Assembly: GCA_009602735.1 (NCBI GenBank)
Contig: WELA01003597.1
Coordinates: 465,265 to 503,432 of the forward strand
Direction: 5' to 3'
Length of the DNA: 38,168 bases
Source of the DNA: Mesotaenium endlicherianum
Lineage: Eukaryota
Position numbers and translations under genes: made by a program. Below are positions 7,730-38,168 of this stretch, piece after piece; the first letter of the stretch is position 1, and each line of letters starts with the position of its first letter. The notes beneath the pieces were generated by a model that saw only the letters and a program-made list of their open reading frames with translations, did not search any database and was not told the DNA's origin.

Positions 7730-8379
7730 TTTTGTACTGGGTCAGCCATTGCTGAAGTCTGAAGGACTCAGTTAAGGTCTACTTTAAAATTGTAGTCAAA
7801 CATAGTAGCTTTTTTTGAAACATATTTTTCCCTCTCCCTCTCCACCCTCTCCACTCCCCCCCCCCCTTGACCCCCCATTTCTTGAGCTTTTCTTGCAACC
7901 ACAGATTTGAGAACCTATACATTTGAAAGCTTCCACCCCCCGCCTCCTTCCGTCCCTCTCTTTGCCTCCCGTCCCCGCTCTCGTGTAGCTTCTCCCTTGC
8001 ATGCGTGCAAATCGACAGGAAGCTGCTGATGGATGTCATGGGCTTTGTGTTTGTGGTCGAGCGTGTCCTCCCTCTCAAGAAGCGTATCACTATTCCTTTT
8101 TCTGGCAAGCCCTTGGGCCCTAAGCGTCGCATTGCCGCTAGATGGAGGCCATGATGTGACAAGAGCACCAAATTCTACGCGCGCGCACGGCGGCCAACTC
8201 TTTGTCTACCCAGGGCGGCTAATTTGCATTTAAGGTGCCACTCGACGGCACCAATGCTTCCTCTTCCTGAGTAAGTAGGCCTGATTAGTTAGCCAAAGAG
8301 CATCAATCCCGCCATCCACTCATTGCACGCCTGCCGGGGACCCCCTCCGTATGCTTGTCTTTGCTTTTCGACCTGCCTT

Positions 8380-10318: not shown

Positions 10319-11317
10319 TCACAGGTTATTTTCTGGATCCCCGTCATCATCCTTGGGGGTTGAAGGATTCCTAGTCGATCTGGTCCGAAATAACCTAAAT
10401 ATGTCGGTACCTGACGCATACACGTGCCCGTGGTCGGGAGGAATCACGTTGTAGATGACCGCCTGAGCCACGCACGCAAGGAACGGCCCAACCCAAAAGA
10501 CCCAATTGTCGTCCCACAAGTCGCCCCCGTGCACAACCGCAGGTCCGAAACACCGCGCGGGGTTCATGCCGGCTCCCACGTATCCCGGGCCCATCAAGAG
10601 CCCGGAGATGAATATCAATAATCCTAAAACGCCCCCGATCATGACGGGCGCCACGATGGGCCCAAAAACCTGCTGCTGCTTGGGATTGAGCGCAATCCCA
10701 AACGCGAGGAAAAGGTTCACCAGTGTGAACGCAAACTCCGAGAGCAGGCCGGCCGAGGCAGAGAGGCCGGTGGTGGTGAGTGTCGTCGCCGTCGTCGTCG
10801 TCGTCGTTGTCGCACCTGCAGAAGCAGCCGTGGTGGCGGTGGGGAGGGTTTGTCGCAGCAGGCAGCCCGCCAACTGGTACTTGTCGGCCTTCTGCGCCGA
10901 GATGATGCCATTGACAGTGGCGGCGCCAGCTGTCGCCCCGAGGCTCTGGGCGAGTATGTACAGGACCCCCCGCGGTAGGGAGGTCAGCCCGGTCAGCATG
11001 GTAGCCAGCGTGATGGACGGGTTCAGGTGCCCTCCCGAGGCGGGGGCGGAGGCCAGGATGAAGAAGGCGAGGATCGCCACGTGGAGCAGCCCGATGGCCT
11101 GGCTCGGGCGTGCGAAGCCGCCCTCCAAGCATGCGATGGTGCCAGTCACCGAAGTGAACACGAGCCCCCCCGTGGCAACGGCCTCGATTGCAGCAGCTCT
11201 CCAGATCTGCACCCCAGCGAGCGGCACCAAAGGTGAGGGGCAGGCGGAGGCGGAAGCCTGCTCAGATGCTGAGAAGGTTTCTAACTCTTTAGAATGGCGA
11301 TCCGCGAGGCGCGGCAA
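10319..11317 (-). CDS. XIP: Major intrinsic protein (aquaporin), X intrinsic protein subfamily; probably the last exon, true 5' end unresolved
   Basis: Six hydrophobic segments, GGHLNPS (variant first NPA), GAGMNPARCFGPA (XIP NPARC signature), loop C LAGC, N-terminal IWRAAAIE and WVFWVGP. The ORF has only a TTG start and an in-frame upstream stop at ~11360. A CAG acceptor directly before IWRA (exon start 11206) suggests an upstream exon. Confidence 0.92.
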   Translation of the reverse strand: MPRLADRHSKELETFSASEQASASACPSPLVPLAGVQIWRAAAIEAVATGGLVFTSVTGTIACLEGGFARPSQAIGLLHVAILAFFILASAPASGGHLNPSITLATMLTGLTSLPRGVLYILAQSLGATAGAATVNGIISAQKADKYQLAGCLLRQTLPTATTAASAGATTTTTTTATTLTTTGLSASAGLLSEFAFTLVNLFLAFGIALNPKQQQVFGPIVAPVMIGGVLGLLIFISGLLMGPGYVGAGMNPARCFGPAVVHGGDLWDDNWVFWVGPFLACVAQAVIYNVIPPDHGHVYASGTDIFRLFRTRSTRNPSTPKDDDGDPENNL

Positions 11318-12021
11318 GGGGCGGCGGGGGGATAGGGCTTGGGAGACAGCTTCTGGAGTCTAGGTTTGGGGATTGGACCTGAGGCTGAGGCGCTTTCGGC
11401 TTGGAGACGCATACTACTGGAGAGTGGGATGGATCCCTGGGGAGGGCGTGGCAACCTGGGGTTTGAGGGCGGGTGGGAAGGAGGGCCCAGATGCTGAATG
11501 CATGAGGAGTGCGTCAGAACTTGGCAAATAGCAACAATAGGGAGTGCGGTTCTGGAGCAGAGGGGAGACTGGCCATCAGTCAGTGAAAGATTGGCAAGAG
11601 ATGGGGGTTTCAGGGGAGCTTCTGGAGACGGAGTGAGCTTGGGGAGTGATATCATGAAAGGGGAATTGAGGGTGGGTGTGGAAAGAGGCCGGGTGTCCTT
11701 GTCACAACCAAGATAAAAGGACGAAAGTAGTCTTGGTGACCGTATGAACGGTCTGTCCGACAGAAGTAAGAAGTTACTCGGGTGGCGTTTGGCACCTTGG
11801 GAGGCAAGGGCAGAGCCTGACACTCTGATGAGGAGGAACCAGCAATGCGATAAATGAGAAGGAAGCAGTAACACGTGGAATATAAAAACTTCCCCAAGAG
11901 CAAGACTGCCGAGAGGCATGCATCAAGTGTGCGCACACAAGTGACATGAATCCTCGCTATTTTGCAGATACATGAACGTCGTCTTCAGATTATGCAAGTG
12001 TATATGTGCACGCGAGCAGGC

Positions 12022-14760: not shown

Positions 14761-15759
14761 AGCAATGAGCCAGCCCAGCGAGTGCCAAGAAAGGTACTGA
14801 TCAATCGGCTATCCAAGCCAAGTACAGCGGGGATATTGCAAAGGGCGTTGTGTGCCGCCTCGGCTAGGCCCTCAGGGGACTGGTCACGGCCTGAGCGTTC
14901 ATCCTAATCGCTGCCAGCCAGCCACATAGGCGTGATTGTCAATGGAAGGCTAAGTGGTCACGCGCAACAATCCCAATGCATGCATGCATGCTGAATGACG
15001 ACTTCTAAGCCGTGTGAGAGCTGCTGGGTAAGGACGGCATGCAAGCTAAGCGCTGTGACTAAGCACTAGTATTCTCGAAAGAGGACAGTGTGTGGTGCTT
15101 GTGAAAGGCACGAGTCGTGCCTGAAGCTGCCTCATTCTTGCTCGCATCGTTGTCAAAGGAAGCTGAAGAAGCAGAAGGAGCGCGAAGGAGAAGGAGTTCC
15201 CAAGGCCATAGAAGAGCCGGGGCGCCACGCTTCTACCGACGCTGGAAGATTTCTTCCTAAGTGTATTATAAAAAGGTTAGGCCTCAGGAGTTCCCAAGAG
15301 AGGATCTCGCTGGTGGAAAGTAGAGAGTTGCAGAATAGAATCTGTTAGGAGATTAGCGCAGATTGAGGTCAAACGCCGCAAGCGTGCGAGGGTCACTTAA
15401 AATGGTGAGTGCTGTGGTACTCTCCAAGTTCTCAAAAGTCTCAATTGTCGAATTGCTGATAGCAAGAGTAGTATTAACAAGTAAAGCTCTCAGTGAAGAG
15501 TGAGCCCAGCCAAGCAGTGAAATGCTGTTAAGGCGCGGGGTTGAGCGAAGAGCTCAGACCAGGCCAGCATAGATGTGCAGTTCAGAGTTTTGTAAGCTGT
15601 GACTTGTGGAAGTTAAGCAAAGCCTTGAAGGGCGATTTTCTCGGAACTTGACATTGCCTGTTAAGCTGCTTAGACGTGATTTTTGCAAACTACAAACTTG
15701 TTCATTATGTAAACCCTCAACTTGGGTGAAAGCCTGTGTGGAAGTAAGACGCTTCTGTC
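14761..15759 (+). repeat. 5' LTR, family B (shared portion; true start may be upstream, e.g. TGTCAAAG at 14669)
   Basis: Matches 18552-19557 from AGCAATGAGCCAGCC to GACGCTTCTGTC. TATA-like TATTATAAAA at ~15264. Confidence 0.85.
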
Positions 15760-15883
15760 ATACTTCTGAGAACTTCGTTGATGGGTTCCGGTGAGCAAGA
15801 ATTCCCAAGTCAGTTGGGGATTGAGGCCTGTGAAGGCTGCCGGTGTTCAACCTGGAAGGGGACCCGGAGAAATTCAACTATAT

Positions 15884-18553
15884 ATGCCGTTGAGGAGTGG
15901 AAGACTCTACCACTCTGTGGAGCCTGCAGAAGGTTCTGATTCTAGCCAGAGTCCACGAGAAAGTGAGACGTCTGAGCATACTGACAACCGGTGGAGTGAG
16001 CAACCGTCGAGAGACGAGTCTTGTCATAACTCCGCAAGCGGTGAGAACCCAGATGATACACGAGCCTTTGTACCTGATTTGGGCAGAGAGCAAGACGTGT
16101 GGGGAAGAGTCAGTGAGTCCTGTTCACCGTTCAAAATGGCCGGTGATGATCGGGATGAAAATCCTAAGTTCAAGCTGTCTGCAAAGTGTTCTAGCGGGCG
16201 AACCAGCGGAAATGGTCTCACTTTCGAAAAGTTTGATGAGATCTATTGGGCAGAATTCTTTGAGAAGATTCGGAAGGATTCTTCTTATACGCAATCTGTC
16301 GCATTTATAGGCTTGGTGCAGTACTTGGACAAGGATGCCCTGCTGTTATATCGCCAATTCCGGAAGGATGACGATCTCACCCACGAATGGGCGTTTGAAG
16401 AACCGAAAAGGGCTAGGGATTTAAAAATCCAGAAAGAGGCTGCAAAAGCCCGAATGTCCGCTTTATCTTTAGGAAGAACAGTGACAACTGCACCCGTTGA
16501 GAGCATAGACCTAGCTGCACTAACACAAGACTTAACAGAGGCCATGAGGCAACTCACTGAGGGCCAGCGGAAGGCGGCCACTCAAGATGATGATGCCGGC
16601 TCTGTCGTAGAATTGCAAAAGGTGTGTGCACAATTGTCTGAAAAGATTGCTAAAGCTCAGGAACGAGTAGCCATCGTCAACTTGGCGAAGCTCAACACAG
16701 ATAATGAAGGAGAACCGCCACCACCCGGAGCGGAGAAATCAGTTGAAGATGAGGCAGAGATGCCAGACCTTCCAGGGTTCGACCTACCGTCAGCCACCAA
16801 TGAAGAGGAGATTTAGCAAGCAATTCCACGTTTTCCTACCCAAGAGCTGGACCTATTGGAGCTACAAGAACTTTGAACGAATGATTGGGTGAACGACCAA
16901 TTGATGATGGAAGGACCCAGTCTGGCCGATCTTTACAACGATCTAAGGTCGCCTACATCTAGCACTCCAACCGCCAGTTTTCCAGCACCACAAGCTACCC
17001 CACATCAGCTACAACAGCCGCAGGAGGTGGCTGCCTGCACCGCTAAGGTGGAACCAACACAAGGAAATCCTCACGGTCGCGCAAGCAAACCAAGAAAGGT
17101 TGTTCGGGAAGGGAATGCACCTTTCCGACGGATGCTGATGCGTTATTTCAAGTACAGGGGAACAGCTTAGAGAGAAGGGGTTCCGAAAGGAACCACGGCT
17201 TCTCCTCCGCAACCTATGCTAGAGATGTTGCAGAGAGAGGGAGAGGATGGCTTAATTCGCAAAGCCATGACATTGGAAATTCACATTCCCATGGTGCGCC
17301 CCTCATCCACTGGAACGTGGGAGAAGGACAGTTCAGCTCCTAGGACACCTGCAGTGTCTGAAAGGGAACTGGTAGAGCTGAGATGCACCATAAGCCGCTT
17401 GACAACAAAAAATGCTATATACGCACAACTAGCTGCGGCTCAAAGATCGCAGACTATGACACAAACATGGACGGTTACGCCACCAGCCAGGGAGGAGTTT
17501 GGCACAATCGTTGCGCGCATAGCTACCATTGAGCGCAAATGGGGTGGGACAATCGACCCCAGAGCAGATTCAGGAGGGTGGCCTTTGCCAAACCCACCCC
17601 CACCACGTGAAGAAGGAGGAACAGGGACCAGTTGGACTGCGGCCGATGAAGAAAGATTCTTGAGGCAGCCCATCCGGAGGCGTCTAACCTACACCACGCA
17701 ACCAGAAAGGCGACAATCTATCGGAAAAGGTAAGAGGCCTAAGAAGCAAGCCACCGAGCCTGAGACAGCGGAGGAGCAAGCTGCAAAGCTTGCCACTCCA
17801 CCGCCTAACAATCAGGCAGAAAAGCCTGAAGGCCAGGATGAGGGCGGAAAGCCCCCACCTGGACCCAAAGAGTAGCAACTACTAAATGCCTGTGTTGGGG
17901 AAAAGCAGCCAGCAACTGAGGTTTTCACCATTGGAAACATAGTCGCAGCCCAACAGAGAGCATTAGTAGAAAGGCTGCTGAAAAAGCACCGCAAGGTGTT
18001 TGCCTTTACCAAAGAGGAGATTGGTAGACTCACTGCCAATGTGTGTGAGATCACACTAACTAATGATAACCTAGTCAGACTTGGGCCGCATAAGCTCATT
18101 CAGACCAAATGGGACTGTGTGGAGAAAACTTGCCAGGAGCTGCACAAGCTCGGTATGATCGAGAAATCAACTTCAATACATGGAGCTCCCACGGTAGTAG
18201 TTGCCAAGAAGGACAAGGATGGCAATTATACAGCCACTCGTATGTGTGGAGACTACAGACGACTGAATCTTCACACGGAGCCAGACAGCTAAGTGATGCC
18301 TACATCAGAGCGAATTTTTGCGATTGCTACCACCGGGAAGGTGTTCAGCATCATTGATCTACGCCAAGGGTTCAACAAGATTCCTGTGAAAACAGAAGAT
18401 CGAGGTAAGACCGCTTTCTGGGCCCAAAGGGAACTTTGGCAATGGACGGTAATGCCGTTTGTGCTGAAAAATGCCCCAGCCATCTTTCAGAGGACTATGG
18501 ATAAAGTGCTGGAGGGGCTGGATTTTGCAAAACCATACATTGATGACATATAG
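15884..18553 (+). pseudogene. gag-linker-RT pseudogene in a single frame; RT truncated at YIDDI
   Basis: Starts MPLRSGR (gag-like). ORFs at 15791, 16889, 17216, 17996 and 18293 share one frame, separated by stops. RT motifs RMCGDYRRLN, FSIIDLRQGFNKI, KTAFW, MPFVLKNAPAIFQR, YIDDI. No protease, RNase H or integrase seen. Confidence 0.88.
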
Positions 18554-19557
18554 CAATGAGCCAGCCCAGCGAGTGCCAAGAAAGGTACTGATCAATTGGC
18601 TATCCAAGCCAAGTACAGCGGGGATGTTGCAAAGGGCGTTGTGTGCCGCCTCGGCTAGGCCCTCAGGTGACTGGTCACGACCTGAGCGTTCATCCGAAGC
18701 GTTGCCAGCCAGCCACATAGGCGTGATTGTCAGCTGGAAGGCTAAGTGGTCACGCGCAACAATCCCAATGCATGCATGCATGCTGAATGACAACTTCTAA
18801 GCCGTGTGAGAGCTGCTGGGTAAGGACGGCATGCAAGCTAAGCGCTGTGACTAAGCACTGGTATTCTCGAAAGAGGACAGTGTGTGGTGCTTGTGAAAGG
18901 CACGAGTCCTGCCTGAAGCTGCCTCATCCTTGCTCGCATTGTTGTCAAAGGAAGCTGAAGAAGCATAGGGAGCGCAAAGAAGAAGGAGTTCCCAAGGCCA
19001 TAGAAGGGCCGAGGTGCCACGCTTCTACCGACGTTGAAAGATTTCTTCCTAAGTGTATCATAGAAAGGTTAGGCCTCAGGAGTTCCCAAGAGAGGATCTC
19101 GCTGGTGGAAAGTAGAGAGTTGCAGAATAGAATCTGTTAGGAGATTAGCGCAGATTGAGGTCAAACGCCGCAAGCGTGCGAGGGTCACTTAAAATGGTGA
19201 GTGTTGTGGTAGTCTCCAAGTTCTCAGAAGTCTCAATTGTCGAATTGCTAATAGCAAGAGTAGTATTAACAAGTAAAGCTCTCAGTGAAGAACTGAGTGA
19301 GCCCAGCCAAGCAGTGAAGAGCTGTTAAGGCGCGGTGTTGAGCGAAGAGCTCAGACCAGGCCAGCATAGATGTGCAATTCAGAGTTTTGTAAGTTGTGAC
19401 TCGTGGAAGTTAAGCAAAAGCCTTGAAGGGCGATTTTCTTGGAACTTGACATTGCCTGTTAAGTTTCTTAGATGTGATTTCTGCAAACTACAAACTTGTT
19501 CATTCTGTAAACCCTCAACTTGGGCGAAAGCCTGTGTGGAAGTAAGACGCTTCTGTC
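18552..19557 (+). repeat. 3' LTR, family B (probably 5'-truncated by the deletion that removed RNase H and integrase)
   Basis: Second copy of 14761-15759, fused directly to the RT YIDDI codons with no polypurine tract. Confidence 0.85.
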
Positions 19558-24618: not shown

Positions 24619-25864
24619 TGAAATGAATCTTGCTTATTGAAGATTAATTATTTCATTTAAATATATAAGATCAGAGATAGGTGGAAGCGTGTGAAATCAG
24701 GGAGCAATCTTCGCCCTTATAATGAATTCCATTTACTTATCTACACGCCTTGACTCATTTACCGTAGTTGCACACTAACACGAGGCACAAGCAAGAGGCG
24801 AGCTTGAGGACTTGAGCTCTCCTTTAGAAACTCATGGCCTCTTGCCTACCAGGCTTGCCAGCATGTATAGCACATGCACAACATCAGGGGACTGAATAGC
24901 AAAGGTGCTCTCATTCGAGTGACCATAATGTAGCTAAAACACATCCCACTGACTTAGGTGCAAACCATGGAATCTGTCCGCTGTGTGACCCCGAAATGTC
25001 AGAGGGCCTAAATCTGCCAATACTTCCTTAAATTGAGCAAACTTAATGGCAACGGATGCATCTTAACGAGAACTTTTCGAAAAGTCCTAGTTCGCTCCAT
25101 TTGGAGCGCAGACAAAGCAGCCATGTTAATTTTCGTGAAGGCTGGTCATTAGAACGAACCCAAAAGTGCACACATGACTTGCAAGTAGAAATCCAACTAT
25201 AAAGCCAACTGTCCAGAATGAGGGACCACGAGATCCCAGCCTGCTATGTACCTAGTGACCACCTGGTTGACCATGGCGCAAGGTGCGCCGTTTCGTGCGA
25301 AACCTGTTAAGTTGGGACCCACGGATCTAGGTGTAACGACCATATTAATTGGTCGGTTGACTGAAGTCCTAATTGTTCAGTTGACTGACAACGGCTCCGC
25401 CCACCCAGGAGTTAACCACACTGGTAGGACATCGATTTACCGAATCTCAGTCGACCTTCCGACTTTCAGTATACTACGGTCACATGTGCCAATCTACAAA
25501 TAATAATCAAAATGAATGTATCTATCCTCAGCGTACTGAAGCTAAGTATACTGACTAATATGAGGAGAGCTTCCTATACGTCAACCTACTGATATTACAT
25601 CCTATATATAACGGATATACAAATCTCAACTAACTATACTATGATACAAAAGTCATCTTGTTGACCTTCTCAACAAGTCAGCAAACTACACTGTTATACA
25701 AAAGTCATCCTGCTGACATTTTTGACGAAGTAAGTAAACTCGCATTACATCGACATACATTTATTTAGATGAACTTGCACATGTGAGTATATTGACATAA
25801 TACTTATTTAGTGTTATAGTTATATATGCAATTAATTTAATAAATTATGAACTGATTTGATACA
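24619..25864. mobile_element. Solo LTR, family A, copy 2 (inverted relative to copy 1)
   Basis: TGAAATGAATC...GATTTGATACA, the reverse complement of 17-1276. Flanked by a 5-bp TSD TGCTG (24614-24618 and 25865-25869), although this sits in a (TGC)n context. Confidence 0.85.
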
Positions 25865-26770: not shown

Positions 26771-26807
26771 GTTTTATCGGAGCTAGGCACTTTGGTAGCA
26801 CAAGAAG

Positions 26808-28079
26808 ATGGCCGATCCTCAAGACCAACAGCAAGCTTTCAAAGGAAGCCCTTCTTCTCCAAGACACTCTCCTCCAGCGCCGATGGGAGAGCCCACTCAA
26901 GAAAATCTGCAACAACAAGAAGCACCACAAGGAGGAGCATACCCTCCTCCAGCGCCGATGGGAGAGCCTACTCAAGGAAATCTGCGACAACAAGAGGCAC
27001 CACAAGAGGGAGCACCGGCAAATCCCGTGGCAGCCGATATAGCAAAGTTGACCCCACCACAAGGAGTTCCCGCAAATGAGTGGGCAGCCTTCCTAATGAC
27101 CGTCCACAACCAAGTGGGCTTGGCCACCTATGAAGCAACCGTGCAAGCATCAAGAGAAGCTATGGCTGCCATGGCTGCCCCTATTGCGAGCAATGCTCAA
27201 AATCCAGCCCCGGCTCAAGCGCCTCCACAAGAGCCAACGAGAGCAAGGAAACTCATCAAGCCCGGCAAACCCGACACTTTCAACCCCGGGAAAGGTGCCA
27301 ACCTGAATTTATGGCTCTACCAAGTGGAGACGTACCTCGCGTTCCTTGAAGTACCCGAGGAGGACTACGTTCCCTTTGCCGTTACCTTACTTAGAGGAGC
27401 AGCAACATCATGGTGGCGTAACTATCAAGCGGCTATATATCAAGCTATGGCGCACCCCATGCTCGGCCAAGAGCCCCCACCATCATATGCAAGATGGGCA
27501 GATTTTCGTGAGGCCCTCAAGAAGCAATTCATGCCCATCAATGCGGAGAAGATTGCCCGAGGAAAGCTCCACCATCTCAAGCAAACGACGTCCGTTCAAG
27601 AGTATACATCCAGATTTCACGCCCTCACTCTTGAGATCCCCAACATGTCTCTCGAGGAGAAGATTGACCGCTACATCTTTGGCCTCAAGCCCAAGGTGGC
27701 AAAGGAAGTGGAGTTACGCGATTTGACGGACTTCTCAAGGATCATTGAAGTGGCCCAAAAGGTGGATTTCAAGCACTCCGTGCCTCCATCTTCACGGGTT
27801 CCGGCGACGCGGGTGTACGCAGCCCCTTCCACATCCGAATCTGGACCCACACCCATGGAAATTGGAGTTATTAAAAGGGACCCCGCGGCTGCCCGGAAGA
27901 GTGGAAGACCCTCCAATGACACTTATGATGCAAGAAACCAGCAAGGAGTGAAAGCAAGACTCTCCCCGGCTGAAAAAGAAGCTCTCATGACGGCTGGACT
28001 ATGCTTCTATTGCAAGGAAAAGGGCCATCGTGCACTTTCATGCCCCAAAAAGTTGTCAAAAAACGGACAGCGCCGGTAG
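26808..28079 (+). CDS. gag: Ty3/gypsy Gag (423 aa) with CCHC zinc knuckle
   Basis: KPDTFNPG...WLYQVETYL, LLRGAATSWW, LKQTTSVQEYTSRF, GPTPMEIG, CFYCKEKGHRALSC. N-terminal duplicated PPAPMGEPTQ.NL.QQEAPQ.GA repeat. Confidence 0.95.
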   Translation: MADPQDQQQAFKGSPSSPRHSPPAPMGEPTQENLQQQEAPQGGAYPPPAPMGEPTQGNLRQQEAPQEGAPANPVAADIAKLTPPQGVPANEWAAFLMTVHNQVGLATYEATVQASREAMAAMAAPIASNAQNPAPAQAPPQEPTRARKLIKPGKPDTFNPGKGANLNLWLYQVETYLAFLEVPEEDYVPFAVTLLRGAATSWWRNYQAAIYQAMAHPMLGQEPPPSYARWADFREALKKQFMPINAEKIARGKLHHLKQTTSVQEYTSRFHALTLEIPNMSLEEKIDRYIFGLKPKVAKEVELRDLTDFSRIIEVAQKVDFKHSVPPSSRVPATRVYAAPSTSESGPTPMEIGVIKRDPAAARKSGRPSNDTYDARNQQGVKARLSPAEKEALMTAGLCFYCKEKGHRALSCPKKLSKNGQRR

Positions 28080-28093
28080 GCCAGGAGCCTACC
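28058..28093 (+). promoter_or_regulatory. -1 programmed ribosomal frameshift signal
   Basis: Slippery heptamer A AAA AAC (28058-28064) in gag phase; pol is in the -1 frame. Downstream hairpin GGTAGGC-cagga-GCCTACC (28075-28093). Confidence 0.8.
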
Positions 28094-31000
28094 ACCCCAA
28101 GACCCACTTCACGAGAAGGCAACACGCCAAGTGAGGTGGAGACCCCCGTTGAAGACGACGTTCCAGCCCCAATGAGTTTGAGAGGTTACCTTGGAGGAGA
28201 GAAGGTCCACATCTTGGTGGATAGCGGAGCTCAAGGCAACTTCATTGCTGCAGATTTTGCCACCAAGCACGGTATTACTATGCGAACTCTTGACCACGAC
28301 GAGGAGATTATGATGCCCGATGGATTCTCCTATACTACCCCTTCCAAGAAGACGTACCCCTTGGCACTCTCTATCAAGTCCTTCAAGGATAGAGTAGTGT
28401 TCTCCCCCATGCAATTGGGCAAGTACGACGTCATCCTAGGGACGCCTTGGTTGACCAAGCACAACCCCCAAGTTGATTGGAGGACCGGTACTATCAAGAT
28501 CAAGAATGACATCACTTCAAGAATCTGTATTTTGCGCGCAATCCAGAATATCGAGACCCAAGACATCAAGAAGCCGGCACACGAGATACTATTGTCTGCC
28601 CTCTAACTCAAGAGACTTGTGAGGAAGGGACACGAGGTTCTGTTGGCCCTGATCACGCCAAAAGACATCAAGAAAGACATCGAGAGTCAAGAAGGCAGGC
28701 CCGTTCCCAAGGAGATCCAAGAAGTCTTGAAGAACTACAAAGAAGTATTCTCCCCGAAATTGCCCCAGGGCCTACCTTCCAAAAGGTTCGTGGACCACAA
28801 GATAGAGTTGGAGCCCGGAAGCAAGCCCATCTCTCGGCCTACGTTCAAAATGTCATACACGGAGCTAGACGAAGTCAAGAAGCAAATCAAGGAGCTACTG
28901 GAGCATGGCTTCATTCGACCTAGCGAGTCGCCATTTGGAGCCCCGGTGCTATTTGTCAAGAAGAAAGATGGTACCTTGAGGATGTGTGAGGACTATCGCG
29001 CCCTCAACAAGATCACCATCAAGAATCGATACCCGTTGCCGCGCATGGATAAGCTCATGGACCGGCTGGTTGGAGCCAAGTACTTCACGAAGATTGACTT
29101 ACGGAGCGGCTACCACCAGATTCGCATCGCAGAACCGGACATAGAGAAGACGGCATTCAGGACAAGATATGGACATTTTGAGTTCACGGTCCTGCCATTT
29201 GGACTCACCAACGCGCCAGCAACTTTCATGACTATGATGAACACCATATTTCAGCCCATGTTGGACAGATTTGTGGTGGTATTCATCGATGACATCCTTA
29301 TCTACAGCAAGACCCTTGAAGAGCATGCGAGACACTTGAAAGAAGTCCTTGAAGTATTGAAGCAAAACAAGCTATTTGCGAAGGAGTCAAAGTGCGAGTT
29401 TGCCAAACAAGAAGTGGAGTTCCTAGGTCTCCACGTGACTGCTGATGGCATCAAGATGGACCCCAAGAAGACCACGGTGGTGGAGGAATGGCCAACCCCC
29501 ACGACCAAGAAAGAACTCCAGTCATTCTTGAAATTTGCCAATTGGTACAGGAAATTCATCCAAGGCTTCTCGCACGTAGCAGTCCCCCTGACAGATCTAC
29601 TCAAGAAGGACATACATGGACCGAGAAAGAGGAAGAGGCATTTCCAAAGTTAAAGCAAAGATTGACCACTTCCCCAGTGCTCACACTCCCAAGTCCAAAC
29701 CCAAATTGGCCCTTCCACGTCATCACTGTTGCATCTTCCTATGCAATAGGAGCAAACTTGCTTCAAGACTAAGGCAAGGGACTGCAGCCCATTGCCTACG
29801 AGTCAAGGAAGCTAAATCTGGCCGAGCAAAATTATACAACCACGGAGCGAGAGGCATTGGCGATTGTACATGCCTTGAAGGTTTGGCGCTGCTACGTTGA
29901 AGGACGCAAGGTACTGGTCACCACGGACCACGAGGCGTTAAAGCACCTCCAGACGCAGCCGTATCTCTCAAGGAGACAAGCAAGATGGAGCGGATACTTG
30001 CAACAATACAACATCACGATTCAGTACCAGCCCGGCAAGACAAACCCGGCTGACCCCCTCTCAATACTGCAATTAAATGCAGTGATGACATCCCTGAAGA
30101 CAGATCTGGAAGCTCGATATTCAGCCGCCTATGAAAGAGACCCTTACTACAAGAACGGAGAAGCAGCCTTGGACCCATACAAGAAGCAAGAAGGCAATTA
30201 TTGGGTGAGGCAAGACACGGGCCAGAGATGTGTTCCTAATGACTTAGACCTCCGGCTCTTGCTTCTACGAGAAGCTCACGACAACCCTCTTGGAGGACAT
30301 TTTAAAATCCTAAGGACCACGGGCGTTCTAGCCAGGACTTATTGCTGGCCAGGCATGTCTAAGCAAGTCAAGGAGTACTGCAGGAGCTGTGACACATGCC
30401 AAAGAATCAAGGTTTCATCGCAAAAGGCAGGAGGACTCCTCCAACCACTACCAATCTCCAAAAGACAATGGACGGACATCTCAATGGACCTTATCGTGGA
30501 CTTGCCCGTGACACTTCGAGGCCATAATGCAATACTCACGGTGGTGGACAGACTTACCAAGATGGCTCATTTTATTTCCACGACGACGAAGGCTACCGCA
30601 CCACAACTTGCAAGACTCATCTTTGACAACATCTTTTGACTCCATGGATTACCATCAAGAATTGTGTCGGATAGAGATCCAAGATTCACAAGCCATTTCT
30701 GGAAAAATCTCTTCAAGAACTTGGGTACATCGCTGGATATGTCCACTGCCTACCACCCGCAATCAGATGGGCAAACGGAGCGTATGAATTGTACTCTAAA
30801 GACCTCCCTAAAGGCCTACATGTCTACTCTGGAGCAAGATTGGGACATGTACTTGACCCCCATGGAGTTTGCCTACAACAACACAACGCAGGCCTCTACC
30901 CAAGAGTCCCCATTCTTCCTCAACTATGGCTTCCATCCAACCACGCCGCTGAGCTTCACGGCTGGCCATGATGAAGTACCTGCAGCAACAGATTTTATGG

Positions 31001-31587
31001 AGACATTAGAAGGAGCCCTTACAGCAGCAAAGAAAGCTCTACAACAGGCGCAAGATGCTCAAGCAAGAGTGGCAAACAGGTCCAGAAGAGAAATTACGTA
31101 CAGAGTGGGTGACAACGTGTTACTACTATCCAAGAATATTTCCCTGAACAACAGGCCTGGCGGCAGCAAGTTCTCTCCCAAGTATTTGGGACCCTTCAAG
31201 ATTATCCAGCAAGTCAACCCCGTTGCTTTCAAGCTAGAACTTCCCCAGACTATGCACATCGACCCCGTATTCCACGCTTCCCTCTTCAAGCCGTATGTGC
31301 AACCCAACAACAAGTTCCCAGGACGTGTGACAACCCCACCAGCCCCAACAATAGTGGATGATCATTTGGAGTACGAAGTGGAAGACATAGTGGCTATGAG
31401 AAATTTCAGGAGACAGCAGCAATACTTGATCAAGTGGAAAGGATATCCAGATTCGGAGAATAGTTGGGTGGCGGCGCACTACCTTGACAAAGTTCAGAGA
31501 AAGTTGAAGCGCTTCCATGCCGCCAACCCCCATCTTGGACCAGCCCCAAGTCTCTCTACTAGAAGCCCGACAACTTCAGGGAGGTAG
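28064..31587 (+). pseudogene. pol: Chromovirus pol (protease, RT, RNase H, integrase, chromodomain) with inactivating lesions
   Basis: ILVDSGA protease; [28 protein letters not shown]; RNase H (TDAS motif altered to TVAS); integrase HHCC, SMDLI, SDRDPRF, SDGQTER; GPF; chromodomain EYEVEDIV...YLIKWKGYPDSENSWV (~31369-31470). Stops at 28604, 29770 and 30637; frameshift near 29615. Confidence 0.95.
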
Positions 31588-31807
31588 CCTGCCACCATCA
31601 AGAAGCAGCAAAAGACCCCTTGGAGGCAGCCTGCAAGAACAAGAAAGAGGGAAAATTGACATTAGACACTCTTGTCGTGCGTTAGGAGATCGGGTGCGCC
31701 TTGTCGGCATAAGCAACACACCATAGACAAGCAGGCTTTGCTGCAATGAAGTCTATAATACAAATGGCTTTATAGCCAAAAAGGGAGTCAAGCGTCAAAT
31801 GTTTTAA

Positions 31808-31817
31808 TTCCCCCCCC
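31808..31817 (-). promoter_or_regulatory. Polypurine tract of the DNMT-carrying gypsy
   Basis: Minus strand GGGGGGGGAA, 5 nt downstream of the polyprotein stop at 31823. Confidence 0.65.
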
Positions 31818-31870
31818 AGCTCTCAGCCTCTAGCTGATGGGCTGTGTACGCTGCCTAAGGCTAGCTCAGT

Positions 31871-32005
31871 GCAGTCTTCGCAGAACCAGTCGTCAGCGGG
31901 CACGCGGGCCAGCGGCGGGTCGAGGCAGCTGATGTGGAAGCCGAGGTTGCAGCTGTCGCAAAGCAGCATCTTGGCCTCCTGGCCAATGCTGTGACAGATC
32001 TGGCA
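31871..32005 (-). other. PHD finger (C4HC3) fused to the integrase C-terminus
   Basis: CQIC...LLCDSCNLGFHISCLDPPLARVPADDWFCEDC with all eight zinc ligands. Confidence 0.95.
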
Positions 32006-32049
32006 CGCCCAGTCCTTGGGCGGCCGCGCGTCGCGAGGACGGACCTGCA

Positions 32050-33110
32050 AGTCCAGGTTAGGAAGGTGGCACGGTCCACAGTTCTTTGTGTGGTCCTTGT
32101 GAAGACGGCCATCTGCGCCTTCCAGCTCCAGGACTCCTGATGCCAAGGCACGCTTGACGCGCAGGATGACCGGCGAGCTGCTGGTGTTGAGGGTGTTCTT
32201 CGTCTGGCGTCGCAGGTACACGAAGTCACCTGCGGAAAACTGCAACACCCGCGGATGATAGGCTCCTCCACGAGTCATGGCGTACCTCAGTGTGTCGCGG
32301 TGCTGTGAGATGCTGAGGTTATCCATGGCCATGGGCATCAGGCGCCGAAAGAGCTGAGCACGCTGCCCAATAAGAGCACTCCATGTGTCGGGACTGTCCA
32401 AGTCCAAGACGTTCTCGGCCACAGTCTTGGCTGCTGCTGGCAGGATGGGCTGTCGGCCGTAGAGAAGGAAGTAGGGAGAGTGCGAGGCCAGGGAGGCCTG
32501 CTTACTGAACCTGTACCCCATCGCCAGCCAAGAGAGGGCATCGTCCCAGTAGGTACGGTCGTGGGCAAGGCAGTACTTCCGCAACCCTAGCTTGACGGTC
32601 TGCACCATGCGCTCGGCGAGGCCGTCAGCCTGAGGATGATCGCGGGAGGTGGTGCGGTGGTCGATCATAGAGCGCTCCAGCAGCTTCTAAAAGCTGCCTT
32701 GGAACTCCTTGCCCTGGTCGGTCAGCACCTCAGCGCAGCCGCCAAAACGGCTAAGGACCTGATTGAAGAAGGCCTGAGCGATCCCCTCACTGGCCTTGCT
32801 GGGCAAGGGCACGAGCTCGATCCACTTGGACATGTGCTCAATCATCACCAAGACGTAGAGGTTGCCCTGGCGAGACTTGGGCAGCTCTCCAGCCAAGTCA
32901 AGCGACCACCAGTAGAACAGCCCCTGAATAGGAAGGGGGCTGAGGGCAACGGTGCGCGCTGTGAAGGTCGAGCGCACACGGTCGCAGAGAGTGCAGCTGC
33001 TGACGACAGCGGCGACGACCTTAGTCATGCCGTGCCACCAGTACTTGGCCTGGAGAAGACTGAGGGTGCGCTTGACACCGAAGTGCCCGAGGGACTCGTG
33101 CACTCGGCGC
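32050..33110 (-). pseudogene. Integrase of the DNMT-gypsy
   Basis: HHCC (VHESLGHFG...CTLC) and DDE residues (WSLDLAG, VLTDQGKEF, ADGLAERMVQ); stop at 32687-32689; SPYFLLYGR; FSAGDFVYL. Confidence 0.92.
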
Positions 33111-33397
33111 ACCAGCTGGCTACGTATGGCAGGTTCAGGGACCACTAGGACAGAGCCGTCCGCCATTACGCGCCGCACGCGCCCCTCCATGAAAATGAAG
33201 TCGCGGCTGCGCATGAGGATGCGGTCGCGCTCGCGTGCGCTGGCATCAGGTGCCAACTCCTTGGCCGTGACGTACTGCAGCACTGGGGCGTCGTCCCACA
33301 CGTCCTCGGGACCGCGCTGCCAGCTGTCCTGATCCTCTGCCGCTGCCAGGGCCAATCGCCGTGTGGTGATGGTCACCATGTCCAGGCTAGTGAGCCC

Positions 33398-34540
33398 TGC
33401 GTAGGCCACCACATGCTCGAAGCCGTCATGCTCCTGTACCAGCACAGCGCCCAGCCCTGCCTGCGACCAATCGGTGTGGAGGATGAAGGGCTTCGCGTAG
33501 TCAGGACGTCGCAGCACAGGAGCGCTCACCAGCAGCTCCTTGAGCTTATCAAATGCCGCCTGCTGCTCTGGTCCCCACACGTAAGTAACGCCCTTGCGGA
33601 GCAAGTTGTTGAGCGGCTTGGCTAGCTCGCTGAACCCTGGCACGAAGCGGCGGTAGTAGTTGGCAATGCCGAGGAAGGCCCGCAGCTGCGAGAGATCTGT
33701 AGGAGGTGGGATGCCTGTGATGGCCGAGATCTTCGCCAGCTGGGGTGCCAAGCCGCTGGAGGAGAGCAGGTCGCCAAGGTACTCCACCTCGCGGGTCCCA
33801 AAAGTGCACTTGCCTGGATGGCACTTAAGCCCAGCGGCCTCCAAGCGGTCCAGGACGGCAGTGATGTGCACCACGTGCTCCTCAAACGTCTGACTGAAGA
33901 CGAGCACGTCATCGAGCTAGCATTGGGCAAAGGATAGCCCGACCAGCTCCTTATCCATCACCCTCTGAAAGGTAGCTGGCGCATTCTTCAACCCGAACGG
34001 CATCACCACCCACTCATAGAGCCGCTGTGCTCCCCAGAACGCCGTCTTATGCTGGTCCTCCTCGGCGATGGGAATCTGGTTGAAGCCCTGACGCAGATCC
34101 AGCACCGAGAACCAAGTCCACGTGCCAATGTCGTCAAAGATCTCGTCAGGCGTCGGCATAGGATATCTGTCCTGCTCGGTGACCTCGTTCAGCCTACGAT
34201 AGTCACCGCACATCCTCTTCTCGGATCAGTTGCCCAAGGCATCCTTCTTGGCTGGCATGACCGTGGGTGCGGCATAGCGAGAGGAGGACTCTCGAATGAG
34301 CCGGCTGTCCTCCAGCTTGCCTGTCTGCGCGCTGATCAAGCCATCCTCAAAGTGGCTGTAGCGATAACGCTTCAGGAAAATGGGCTCCTGCGACGTGAGA
34401 GTAATCCGCATGGGGTCCCCCCGATAGCGCCCGAGATCGTGCATGCCGCTGTCAAAGCTGGTGCTGCGCCTCCCGTCCAGCAGTGCCGTCAACTGTGTAG
34501 CCTGCGCCGTGGTGAGTGTCCCCCCCAGCTTCCATGTCGG
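33398..34540 (-). pseudogene. pol: Reverse transcriptase and N-terminal part of RNase H of the DNMT-gypsy
   Basis: RMCGDYRRLN, FSVLDLRQGFNQI, MPFGLKNAPATFQR, C*LDDVLVFS (YLDD Tyr codon is now TAG, 33917-33919), TGA at 34226-34228, FLGIANYYRRFV, PFILHTDWSQAGLGAVL...VVAYA, then a deletion. Confidence 0.93.
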
Positions 34541-34989
34541 TGGAGCTGGTGGCGTCGCCTGGCCTGCAACTAGAGTCTCTTCTCTTGCCGCTGGGGTAGA
34601 CCGTGGTGTTGCAGATTTCACCTGCCCTGCAGTGGTTGGCGCTCGGCCTGCCCTAGGTACCTGCACTGTGGCAGCTGCGGCCAGCTGCCTGGCACCGTCT
34701 GCCTGCGAGCGAGGATAAAGAAAAGGTGACTGGGACTCCCTGGGTCCCTGTGAGGACTCCTCTCTCCGCCGTCCCCCCCCCAGCGAACCAGAGTCCTCCC
34801 CGCGCGGCTGCGGGGAGGGGGGGCGGGTGCGCGCTTGCGGTGCAGGCCCTGCGCGCTGAGGATGCCACGTCGTGCCGGGCAAGGCCTGATTGTCATCGTC
34901 GGTGGAGTCATCGTCCATATCATCGGCAGGCCGAGGGAGCTCGGGATGCCGGGCTGTGGCGTAGAGAGGCGCCAAGGCCTGCGTCTGCA

Positions 34990-35936
34990 GCAGAATCCAC
35001 GTGAGGACGTTGGCGTCGATCGCCTGCCCCAAGAGGCGAATGCGGTTCACCTCAGTGAGACCGTCCACCTGTGTGGGATGTGGCGGGAAGCCCATGGCAC
35101 GCTCCATCTCCGCAGGACGCGGCCTGTCAAACATGCCAGTCTCTAGGTCGATGACCATCCCGCGCTGATCTCCGACGAAGGCGTCGCTGTCGTAGCGGCT
35201 GACAAAAGTCGGCAGCGCGCGTGCGACGTCATGCAGGACCTCACACTGCGCCATGGAGGGGTGTGGTAGCGCCGTCACACGCTGGGTCAGACGAGGGGCA
35301 TCGAGGATGGAGTCAACGGTGCGTGGGTGACGTGGATGAGAGGCGGCCAACGCCTCGAGAGTACCTGGCATGGCCAGGTTCGTGAAGTAGGCGCGGACGC
35401 GGTGCGCGAAGGAACCAATCTGGGCAGCGTCGATGACGGCCTCGCGGCCGACGTAACTGCTGCAGAGAGCAAAGTCGGCGCTAACGTCGGGTCGGCGATC
35501 GTGGCGCGCGGCCACGTTCTCCAGGACCCACGCGAGAGTGTGTGGCGGCTGGCGATCCTCAACAATGTTGAGGACGCGGAGCAAGTGCCAGAAGAGGGCC
35601 GTGCCGGGGATCGCTGAGCGCCCTGCCACGCCCGATTTTGGAGAAGCCCTGGCACTCCCAACCGGCGATGACGAGGTCAATGGGCCCAAGTCGGCTGACA
35701 TGCTCGACGGTGATGTCGCGGATGTCCATGGGCCAGTCTGTCTGAGCGCGGCGGAATGCGTGCGCAGGAAGGAGGTCAGGGAACTGCTCGTGACCCAACG
35801 CCATCTGCCGACGGGCCACCTGCTGGGCCTCAGGATCGGGATCGACGTAGACGTAGCGGCGCACCGGAATGCCGGCCTGTAAGGTCGCGAGTAACCCGGT
35901 GGCGATGCCGGCAAAGAGCTCGACGAGGACGATGCC
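34990..35936 (-). pseudogene. C5-cytosine DNA methyltransferase domain, DNMT3-like, split by a frameshift
   Basis: Motif I VLVELFAGI; II YVYVD; III DIRDI; IV GPIDLVIAGWECQGFS (35649-35663 encodes GWECQ); VI WVLENV (ENV at 35513-35521); VIII IDAAQIGSFAHRVRAYFTNL; IX-X EMERAMGFP...RIRLLGQAIDANVL. Confidence 0.93.
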
Positions 35937-38168
35937 GTTGGGCCGCTTGTCTAGAGCGTCTGCGCAGATTGGAGTCGGAAGTGGGCGACACCCCATTGCA
36001 GGGGCGCCGGGCTGAGCGGGCGGCGGGAAGGTACGCTCAGCGCTGTGCTGATGTGGCGCCATGCGGAGGGCGGCCACCGCACGGTCTGCGTAGTCACGCG
36101 TAAGGTTGGGGATGCGGTCAGTGAGCGGCTGCGGACGCACCCCCCGTGTGTGGTCCTGGTAGGTGCGCCACCGTAGGCGCGCATCCTGCAGGGCTGTGGG
36201 AGAGACAGCGCGTGCCTGACGTCGGGCCGAGGCCACGCACAGTAGCTGCCACCTGTCGCGTTGGTCGCGGTCAGTCTGGTGCGAGGCTGCGTGGGCCAGC
36301 TGGTCGAGAACGGGACGCGGAGTCAAGTAGGGGTGCGGGTTGAAGTAGGCTCGCTGGCGTGCGCGCATGTCTGCAGAGGGGACTGTGCAGACGGAGCGCT
36401 CGGAGCTGTCGACCTCCTGCGAAGATCGAACTAGCCGGCGAGGGGCTTGGTGGACTCGCGGCCGGGGCTGCCCTCGTGGGACGGGCGCGTCCCGGGGCTG
36501 CCGAAGACTAGACATGAGCCGTGTGCGTGCGGCGGCTGTAAATGGGTGACGACTGGGCAGCCTGCTGTTGGTGCGGGCCACCTTGGGAGGAGGTGACCCG
36601 GAGGGACTGTCGCCAGCGATGTGGCTGCGAGGGACGCTGGCGCGCGGAGCTGTAGGGGCCAGCATCACAAAATGCGCCTTGGAGGAAGACTGAGCGTCGT
36701 CGCCAGCTGAGAGGGGCCGGAAGGGCGGAGTGCGGCGTCGGTCTCGAGTGTCGTCGTATGGCGGCGTGTCCCCGCGGGTCCGCGTGTCGTCGTAAGGAGG
36801 TGTGCGGTCCCTGTCGTTGTAGGGCGGCGTGACGGAGCGGGCGCGCGTCTCGCGGAGGGGAGTCACCTCTCGCGTCTCGCAAAGGGGTGTGAGCGATCGG
36901 GAGCGGCTCGACTCGCGGAGAGGAGTGGTCTCTCGAGCGGGTCCCATGGTCGGCCAAGTGCAATGTGCGTAGGTCAGATGGGCGCAGATAGACGGGGTCG
37001 TGCGGTGTGGCTCGCGGACGCTGAGCCTGGGCGCTGGCTGCTGTATGGGGTGTGTGCCAGCGCTAGAGGAGGCCGCGGCAGCCCGGCTCGTCGCAAACAA
37101 ATGCGCGATGCGGCGACACTCGTGGCTCGTCGAGCAATCGTGTGACACTGGTCGGCTGGGTCCAGCGACGTCGGTGCGAGCCCTGCTGGGCCAGTCGTGA
37201 GCCATGGGCTGGCTAAGTGCGCTGAAGCCGGGCGGACCAGTAGGTGTGCGTTGCCTGCGTGCCGTAGGCGCAGCTGGCGGGGGCTCCTCCGGTGGCGCCG
37301 CGCTGAGGACCTCGACGGAAGCCTCTGGCAATCGTTCCCACTGCGTCTCCTCCTCACTTTTGAGGGACTGGTCGTCGGATCTGTCAGGATAAGCTGCCTG
37401 CCGCATGGCCTCGTCTTCGGATGCCGTGAGGCAAGGCCTGGTCTCGCCGGTCTGATGCGAGGTGTCGTGCGGGGGCGGCTGAGAGTCCATACTGTACTGA
37501 ATGGCCACGCCAACAGGCACGTCGTGGCGAACGCGGACGTCGGTCCTCGCGGACGGTTCGCCTCGAGAGGCCGAGACCCCCCCCTGATGAGTCGTAGGCG
37601 CTGCGACTGCACCGCGGGCAAGGGCGGCGGCAGCGATGGCTGTGCTGGCCGTGGCGAGGGCCTCAGTGGCGTCATCCGCCATCTGTCGCATCATCGCGCT
37701 GTGGGCAGTGCAGATGCGGATCTGCTCCCTGGCCTGGGCTGCCAGGACATCCGCCTGGTGCTGCGGCGTGAGATGGAGCTCGGCACTAGGTAGGTCCGGC
37801 TCCTCGTCCTGTGACTCGAGCAGGTCCACCCCCATAGAGATCTCCTCGTCCTCGGGCCTGTCCTTATCGGTCTTGACCACTGGCCAGCCATCGTCCAGCC
37901 CCATGAAGCCATAAAGAGCGGACACTGCTGGGCGGCGATCGACAATGTCAAGGGGCAAGGATGCGGTGCGCGTCCCCCCTGTCCTCCATTTGGGACGATA
38001 GAAGACGCGCTCTGCCCAGTTGTCGACCGCGGCGCCAATGGGAAAGAGCACGTCACGCCCTAGGAGCACATCAAAGGACTCGGAAGGAGTGACGAGTGCG
38101 TGCCGATGGATGGTTGTCTCGTCTGCCGTGCCTGGGCGCAGAGTGAACAGTAGCGCCAACCTCGTGCG

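Follow-up and report, generated by a model that had tools for sequence, protein, structure and literature searches.

Why would a transposon carry an enzyme of the kind that silences transposons? This question is raised by a locus in the zygnematophyte Mesotaenium endlicherianum, namely a stretch of 38,168 nucleotides (contig WELA01003597.1 of assembly GCA_009602735.1, positions 465,265 to 503,432 of the forward strand), which we call the window. A preliminary inspection without database searches, hereafter the sequence-only reading, proposed that a Ty3/gypsy retrotransposon here encodes its own cytosine methyltransferase. We find that the element belongs to a multi-copy Ty3/gypsy family that encodes a protease, a DNMT3-like methyltransferase, reverse transcriptase (RT), RNase H, integrase and a PHD finger. 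It is a further Gypsy-Dnmt3 element of the same kind as KnitGypsy-Dnmt3 of Klebsormidium nitens.

Frame translation reveals a single Ty3/gypsy polyprotein on the minus strand, in five pieces, from the end of the window down to position 31823 (Table 1). The order of protease, RT, RNase H and DDE integrase, with a polypurine tract, is that of Ty3/gypsy elements. As the sequence-only reading had stated, the methyltransferase lies between the protease and RT. Of the protease, the window includes no more than the C-terminal part, which has no Pfam match and was identified by its similarity to a Klebsormidium protein; in relatives, PF13975 directly precedes the methyltransferase. The gag region, the catalytic motif of the protease and the 5' end of the element are beyond the window. 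The sequence-only reading does not mention the PHD finger at the end of the integrase.

Table 1. Positions of the methyltransferase-bearing element and its neighboring element in the window
Feature	Positions	Strand	Evidence or remark
Aspartic protease, C-terminal part	37881..38168	-	E 3e-8 to protease region of Klebsormidium P0100
GC-rich low-complexity linker, open, ~645 residues	35950..37880	-	no known domain
DNMT3-like C5 cytosine methyltransferase	34990..35936	-	profile, structure and fold matches; frameshift near 35604
Methyltransferase-RT linker, in frame, stop-free in window copy	34420..34989	-	
Reverse transcriptase	33600..34419	-	PF00078 E 6e-17 and 1.9e-7
RNase H, first half only	33395..33577	-	PF17919 positions 1-61 of 100
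Integrase: H2C2 zinc finger, DDE core, C-terminal part	32006..33133	-	PF17921 E 3.7e-17, PF00665 E 2.8e-10
PHD finger, integrase C-terminus	31871..32005	-	PF00628 E 2.4e-12
Polypurine tract, run of eight G, directly after stop codon	31810..31824	-	sequence; relatives alike
3' terminal repeat 'A', ends in CACGACA	31673..31809	-	loose contig/read ends at 31673
Decayed chromodomain Ty3/gypsy element, no methyltransferase	26799..31672	+	gag, protease, RT, RNase H, integrase, SH3 and chromo domains

The linker preceding the methyltransferase is exceptional in length, as the spacer between protease and methyltransferase has about 645 residues in the window copy versus 33 to 136 in 23 relatives. It includes a 36-bp tandem repeat (36724-36807) and is covered by contigs from other copies in the host. 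No Pfam family matches this linker. Within it, a protein atlas search found no usable match for 36954-37880 and only bacterial clusters with low recognition for 35991-36452, which we counted as nothing.

The C5-methyltransferase motifs quoted in the sequence-only reading are all present on the minus strand, in unpermuted order: ELFAG (35921-35907), GWECQ (35663-35649), LENV (35524-35513), AHRVRAYFTN (35407-35378), EMERAMGF (35110-35087) and RLLGQAID (35038-35015). For profile searches and structure prediction, the stretch 35990-34961 was translated into 343 residues, with an X at a one-base frameshift near 35604. This domain matches PF00145 with 35.5 bits (cut-off 22; E 1e-8). Among solved structures, the best match is DNMT3A/B/C (E 4.5e-17), followed by DRM (2e-6) and HhaI (0.003), and profile comparison gives the same ranking (DNMT3A, E 1.7e-24; DRM, 5e-11; HhaI, 5e-8). 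A structure predicted from a 55-sequence alignment has a predicted local distance difference test (pLDDT) score of 95.8 and a predicted template modeling (pTM) score of 0.94. It models as a C5 methyltransferase, and Foldseek superposes it best on DNMT3A/B (E 3.8e-20). Judged by sequence and predicted fold, the domain is a DNMT3-like C5 methyltransferase, as had been suspected from its motifs; it is closest to DNMT3 and is not of the DRM, DNMT1, DNMT2 or bacterial type. The catalytic domains of human DNMT3A/3B (PDB 6w89, 2qrv), its best match in both sequence and fold, share its motif order and its signatures in motifs VIII-X, at about 25% identity. Because the target-recognition region did not align, the specificity of DNMT3A is not transferable to the window domain.

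The catalytic Cys, the Glu of ENV and the Arg pair of motif VIII are all present in the window domain. Across 167 domains of the family, the motif IV Cys is found in 166, the motif VI Glu in 167 and each motif VIII Arg in 165. The residue preceding the catalytic Cys is variable: 89 of 180 proteins have Glu-Cys, as does the window domain (GWECQ), and 76 have Pro-Cys. Therefore, GWECQ is a natural variant and not a sign of decay.

The window copy is dead. The sequence-only reading expected the methyltransferase to be continuous with RT, RNase H and integrase after correction of a single frameshift (~35604), and this expectation failed, given that in-frame stops occur at 34228, 33919 and 32689, and half of the RNase H is deleted (~33400). 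These breaks are features of the window copy, because other copies lack the frameshift, differ at two of the stops and read through the RNase H gap. Part of the element is contained in 20 of 24 listed sequencing runs, none of which contains half its words; no RNA run is listed as containing it. When three DNA runs and one RNA run were placed on the element, DNA depth was observed in all 30 bins, including those of the methyltransferase. The frameshift is lacking from other copies in three of four runs in each of two read comparisons, RNA runs being without depth at this position. Among the 40 of 402 differences shown, other host copies differ at the codons of stops 32689 and 33919, and stop 34228 is not represented. 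At the RNase H gap, 12 contigs of run X1 and two of run X5 carry other sequence onward at 33399. One contig of 1843 bases covers the methyltransferase and its upstream linker.

The methyltransferase is under purifying selection. We scored host variants over 35400-35950 by using the best-supported 40 of 82 rows, of which three at the frameshift were dropped and 37 classified; some rows near 35594-35622 stem from a gapped, divergent contig. Variants shared between host copies comprise 15 synonymous and 4 non-synonymous changes. Those private to the window copy (5:5) or to single other copies (2:6) together amount to 7:11, which differs from the shared ratio (Fisher p 0.02). We also estimated the ratio of non-synonymous to synonymous substitution rates (dN/dS) from 18 stop-free methyltransferase segments of related loci, among which six pairs have dN < 0.25. 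In three pairs of intact relatives, the methyltransferase ratio is 0.10-0.12 (0.124, 0.104 and 0.122), far from the value of about 1 that the sequence-only reading regarded as fatal to its proposal, and RT gives 0.046, 0.029 and 0.045. Two decayed pairs give 0.80-0.81, and the sixth pair has no synonymous change.

Among representatives clustered at 50% identity, 145 proteins match at E <= 1e-30. The domain follows the protease or precedes RT, as in the window, in 27 of the 180 proteins that carry it. In 93 it follows RNase H or precedes integrase, and in 1 it precedes the protease; the remaining 59 proteins are too short for the order to be seen. Among 80 related loci, the methyltransferase is followed by RT in 41, the RNase H-side order is present in 9, and 30 are undecidable. 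When 30 representatives were looked up, the named members with the protease-side order came from Mesostigma, Klebsormidium (GAQ93235.1), Closterium and Calypogeia, and a Marchantia protein falls in the same branch. Scenedesmus was the sole named eukaryote with the RNase H-side order. This second order is complete (RT-RNase H-methyltransferase-integrase-PHD) in 37 of the 180 proteins, for example P0012, P0015 and P0067 (Scenedesmus), as well as loci L034 and L037. One such full polyprotein, P0016, is labelled as coming from a bacterial metagenome bin, which probably contains algal DNA. Locus L056:3365 has an in-frame TAG, and then a frame of 1795 residues in the order methyltransferase-RT-RNase H-integrase, the RT being divergent. 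A viral origin is unsupported, as 20 viral loci are only weakly similar (best E 1e-8).

The methyltransferase tree and the RT tree each split the two domain orders, and the methyltransferase has therefore long travelled with the element. The methyltransferase tree was midpoint-rooted without host DNMT3; its deepest splits have supports of 0.28-0.50, and the 40-row side that includes the window is separated from the rest with 0.99. The window domain clusters with Mesostigma and Closterium proteins (support 0.86), apart from P0100. In the RT tree, which has a single outgroup, the second order forms one side of a branch with a Shimodaira-Hasegawa-like approximate likelihood ratio test (SH-aLRT) value of 95. 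Between motifs I and IV, both order types carry an insertion that DNMT3A lacks, some 17-21 residues long: the distance from the motif I Gly to the motif IV Cys is 68 residues in DNMT3A versus a median of 85 in one element type and 89 in the other. Because both types share this insertion and end in a PHD finger, one capture followed by a move is favored. The insertion is the only direct hint of a single capture; neither tree discriminates one origin from two.

In 33 of the 41 loci in which the methyltransferase precedes RT, an in-frame stop (TAG or TAA) followed by CAR-YY is located between these two domains. These loci include L002:4509, L007, L008:5083, L014:4661 and L053, which are intact and have exactly CARYYA, a known readthrough signal (PMC3441728). 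The moss- or liverwort-like loci L004, L021 and L041 also have the stop and CAR-YY. Most of the 33 loci are near-copies of one family, and the signal occurs in two groups whose linkers cannot be aligned. This arrangement suggests that, in those relatives, a Gag-protease-methyltransferase protein could be the major product, with RT-integrase made by readthrough. The stop is a property of relatives, because the linker of the window copy and three Closterium proteins are stop-free. In the window frames, three sense codons (37043, 36251 and 35789) that precede CAR-YY are one change from a stop, and none is seen as a stop among the 40 of 402 differences shown. The Klebsormidium-like P0100, P0129 and L069 end about 12-17 residues after the methyltransferase; at that end, L069 has an in-frame TGA, and its frame runs on toward RT.

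These observations lead to a broader hypothesis, which we hold tentatively and consider somewhat less than an even bet. A single ancient capture of a DNMT3 gene would have founded a Gypsy lineage found throughout the green lineage, in which the integrase kept its PHD finger, the enzyme moved between two sites in the polyprotein (ahead of RT in streptophytes, behind RNase H in chlorophytes), and a bryophyte-like branch has a leaky TAG-CAR-YYA stop. If so, the element rebuilds the logic of animal DNMT3, that is, a reader of unmethylated H3K4 (lysine 4 of histone H3) joined to a de novo methyltransferase, from two parts of a polyprotein. A Gag-side enzyme behind a leaky stop would also be present in many copies per particle.

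The 3' terminal repeat A has about 135 bases, and contigs and reads of other copies diverge at 31673, which we take as the end of the insertion. The terminal CACGACA motif, which is conserved in the family, is found in 10 of 23 PHD-bearing loci. Two related loci, L041 (1680-10806) and L060 (5861-15075), have split direct repeats with the layout B-coding-polypurine tract-A-B-A and TG...CA ends; a target duplication of 4 bp is present in L041. In this layout, A and B meet at a two-base junction. One contig of run X5 has an A-B junction at 31673, and the window copy itself has only the 3' A repeat. L011, L032, L058 and the window copy end after the first A. There is no tRNA gene in the window.

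Solved PHD fingers that match that of the element include those of KMT2D/C, CHD4, UHRF1, KDM5, PHF21A, AIRE and BAZ2, and no ING, BPTF or TAF3 finger is among the best 60 of 90 matches. The position that we take to be the aromatic-cage Trp of H3K4me3 readers is Trp in 1 of 53 family members, and the other 52 lack this Trp. The element's finger resembles those of UHRF1, KDM5 (PHD1), PHF21A and AIRE, which presumably read the unmodified H3 tail. It is thus predicted to recognize H3K4 in the unmethylated state.

The sequence-only reading was right to connect the element with the work of de Mendoza et al. (2018), in which a Gypsy element carrying Dnmt3 within Pol is described. The main text of that paper reports that KnitGypsy-Dnmt3 has a Ka/Ks below 0.2 and DIRS-like repeats (PMC5890265). 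The window element likewise has an intronless, unpermuted Dnmt3-like domain in a Gypsy Pol under purifying selection, and the DIRS-like split repeats resemble the B-coding-A-B-A layout of its relatives L041 and L060. GAQ93235.1 (P0100, K. nitens), which we take as a KnitGypsy-Dnmt3-type element, has a protease and then a methyltransferase that is 34% identical to the window domain over 327 columns. The window element differs in its host class, in having Glu-Cys instead of Pro-Cys and in the linker of about 645 residues before the domain. SymbioDIRS-Dnmt3 of Symbiodinium also has a DNMT3-like domain in Pol; however, it is a tyrosine-recombinase DIRS element and, according to the main text of the same paper, an independent capture (PMC5890265).

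Other known elements are similar in part. Gypsy-7a_cRei of Chlamydomonas, compared by its description in the available part of the source, is a green-algal Gypsy element that has a PHD finger in Gag-Pol and is biased to intergenic insertion, but a methyltransferase is not among its listed domains (PMC9940879). PHD-retrotransposon fusions are thus already known, from this and another partly available report (bioRxiv 10.1101/2021.11.30.470311; PMC9940879). EpiLTRs/DAM-LTRs are Gypsy-like and carry methyltransferases and a chromatin reader; unlike the window element, they have an adenine methyltransferase, a DNMT that is sister to DNMT4, and a chromodomain. In the available text, their authors consider this capture distinct from the streptophyte Gypsy-DNMT3 (bioRxiv 10.64898/2026.05.21.726589). 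Later papers, as far as their available text goes, cite Gypsy-Dnmt3 without extending it (PMC6338049, PMC12344493, bioRxiv 10.64898/2026.05.21.726589).

The guess that the host is undescribed also proved sound. The literature searched knows this kind of element only from Klebsormidium, and no paper found joins Mesotaenium, DNMT3, retrotransposon and methylation. In this literature, which excluded subscription journals and theses, we found no description of the PHD finger, the chlorophyte order or the readthrough of the Gypsy-Dnmt3 family, although supplementary figures may already include the PHD finger or more hosts. The main text of PMC5890265 has no mention of PHD fingers, readthrough, liverworts or chlorophytes; its Fig. 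4c and Supplementary Fig. 13 may show more. New from the window are the zygnematophyte host, the very long linker and the Glu-Cys variant. Our survey adds the following, which we did not find in print: the relatives from Mesostigma, Closterium, liverworts and chlorophytes, the second domain order, the share of Glu-Cys and the readthrough-type stop. With the zygnematophyte copy and the relatives from Mesostigma, Closterium, liverworts and Scenedesmus, what appeared to be a single-species oddity becomes an old, widespread lineage. Many naturally intact enzymes with two types of catalytic motif provide material for asking why a transposon carries a transposon-silencing enzyme, and the conserved readthrough stop in relatives makes a direct prediction about the amount of enzyme.

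As an answer to this question, we mildly favor a mechanism in which the enzyme of working copies acts on newly made DNA. The protease would release the methyltransferase inside the particle, in which the enzyme would be packaged, and the catalytically active enzyme would methylate new cDNA in or near the particle. The PHD finger would then tether integrase to chromatin lacking H3K4 methylation and so guide integration. Loci with the readthrough stop would produce the enzyme in bulk, as part of the Gag-side product. As a probable benefit, a new copy would come already marked like the silent chromatin of the host and would land away from active promoters, causing less harm to the host. A preference for CG sites may be assumed by analogy with dinoflagellate retrotransposon DNMT3s of the SymbioDIRS-Dnmt3 type, which methylate CG de novo in yeast (main text of PMC5890265).

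Base changes in the window copy bear on its methylation. Compared with run X1, changes in which the window copy lost a C on either strand are found at 148 places versus 51 in the reverse direction, and of the 24 C-to-T-type differences listed, 20 fall at CG or CHG sites (53% expected; p 0.002). From these base changes, the pattern is read as the mark of a methylated, decaying copy. Because the scars include CHG sites, the later silencing of this copy was probably the work of the host.

Several observations weigh against methylation of cDNA by the element's own enzyme. CHG sites account for 12 of the 24 transitions listed, and this half suggests a host enzyme. CpG is not depleted in the element, with an observed/expected ratio of 0.73-1.12 versus 0.61 in the neighboring methyltransferase-free element; depletion might be expected because heritable CG self-methylation over many cycles might produce it. 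In RNA run X23, of which about 6% was read, no reads fall on 34048-38168, a region that includes the methyltransferase and its linker. The window's own family and, likewise, the three Closterium proteins lack the readthrough stop after the methyltransferase. Where DNMT3A has Pro-Cys, the window domain and 89 of 180 relatives have Glu-Cys. Finally, the Klebsormidium enzyme produced no de novo methylation in yeast, a result that is inconclusive according to its authors because DNMT3B failed too (main text of PMC5890265).

One alternative concerns the substrate of the enzyme. The methyltransferase could be a self-limiting brake that works on chromosomal copies or at the insertion site, either in trans or once the element has integrated, with particle cDNA not being its main substrate. 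The conservation evidence (dN/dS, host variants and catalytic residues) applies equally to such a brake, the readthrough stop implies bulk expression, from which free enzyme would also be available, and the option was raised in the main text of de Mendoza et al. (PMC5890265). However, the domain is located within a polyprotein that is processed by a protease, and chlorophyte relatives have it between RNase H and integrase, an order present in whole or part in 93 of 180 proteins; this position suits co-packaging. We consider the brake unlikely.

It is also conceivable that the domain is retained as a DNA- or RNA-binding module or as an RNA methylase, with little catalysis on DNA. The inactivity of the Klebsormidium domain in yeast, the occurrence of Glu-Cys in about half of the family and the missing CpG depletion are in line with this idea. 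However, the catalytic Cys, the Glu and both Arg are almost invariant across very distant members, and in fold and motifs the domain agrees with DNMT3 rather than DNMT2. We rate a binding role or RNA methylation, with little catalysis on DNA, as improbable. The remaining possibility is that the window copy alone captured a host gene, in a single event, or that its methyltransferase results from faulty assembly. This would fit the unusually long linker before the domain and the fact that no single contig spans the entire element. It is almost certainly wrong. In three DNA runs, contigs extend over the domain and the sequence on either side, there are no introns, and the same order is found in 41 of 80 related loci and in proteins from Klebsormidium, Closterium, Mesostigma and liverworts. 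A domain missing from other copies, which the sequence-only reading named as grounds for dismissal, is the opposite of what we found, and the contigs of other host copies and these loci rule out a one-off.

The chromodomain element (Table 1) abuts the 3' end of the methyltransferase element, tail to tail. Reads of RNA run X23, most of them partial matches, cover the 3' end of the chromodomain element. Its 5' long terminal repeat (LTR) was not matched to its 3' end, and an insertion of the methyltransferase element inside its LTR is therefore unproven.

Elsewhere in the window, a single open frame at 10319-11359 (-) encodes an aquaporin (PF00230) that matches eukprot Mesen1 ME000052S08158 with 100% identity across 94% of the query; among its land-plant matches is a protein named X intrinsic protein. 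Two inverted repeat arms, each about 1.2 kb long (17-1245 and 24649-25864), are 88-97% complementary and about 23.4 kb apart, and represent either one large terminal-inverted-repeat element or a repeat present twice in opposite orientations. Two direct repeats, each about 1 kb long (14761-15759 and 18552-19557; 95-96% identical, 3.8 kb apart), flank open frames 15782-16816 and 17171-17875, an arrangement that resembles a non-autonomous LTR element. CpG is strongly depleted (observed/expected 0.18) in 6001-8000, around an open frame at 6715-7500 (-) whose product we presume to resemble a copia gag.

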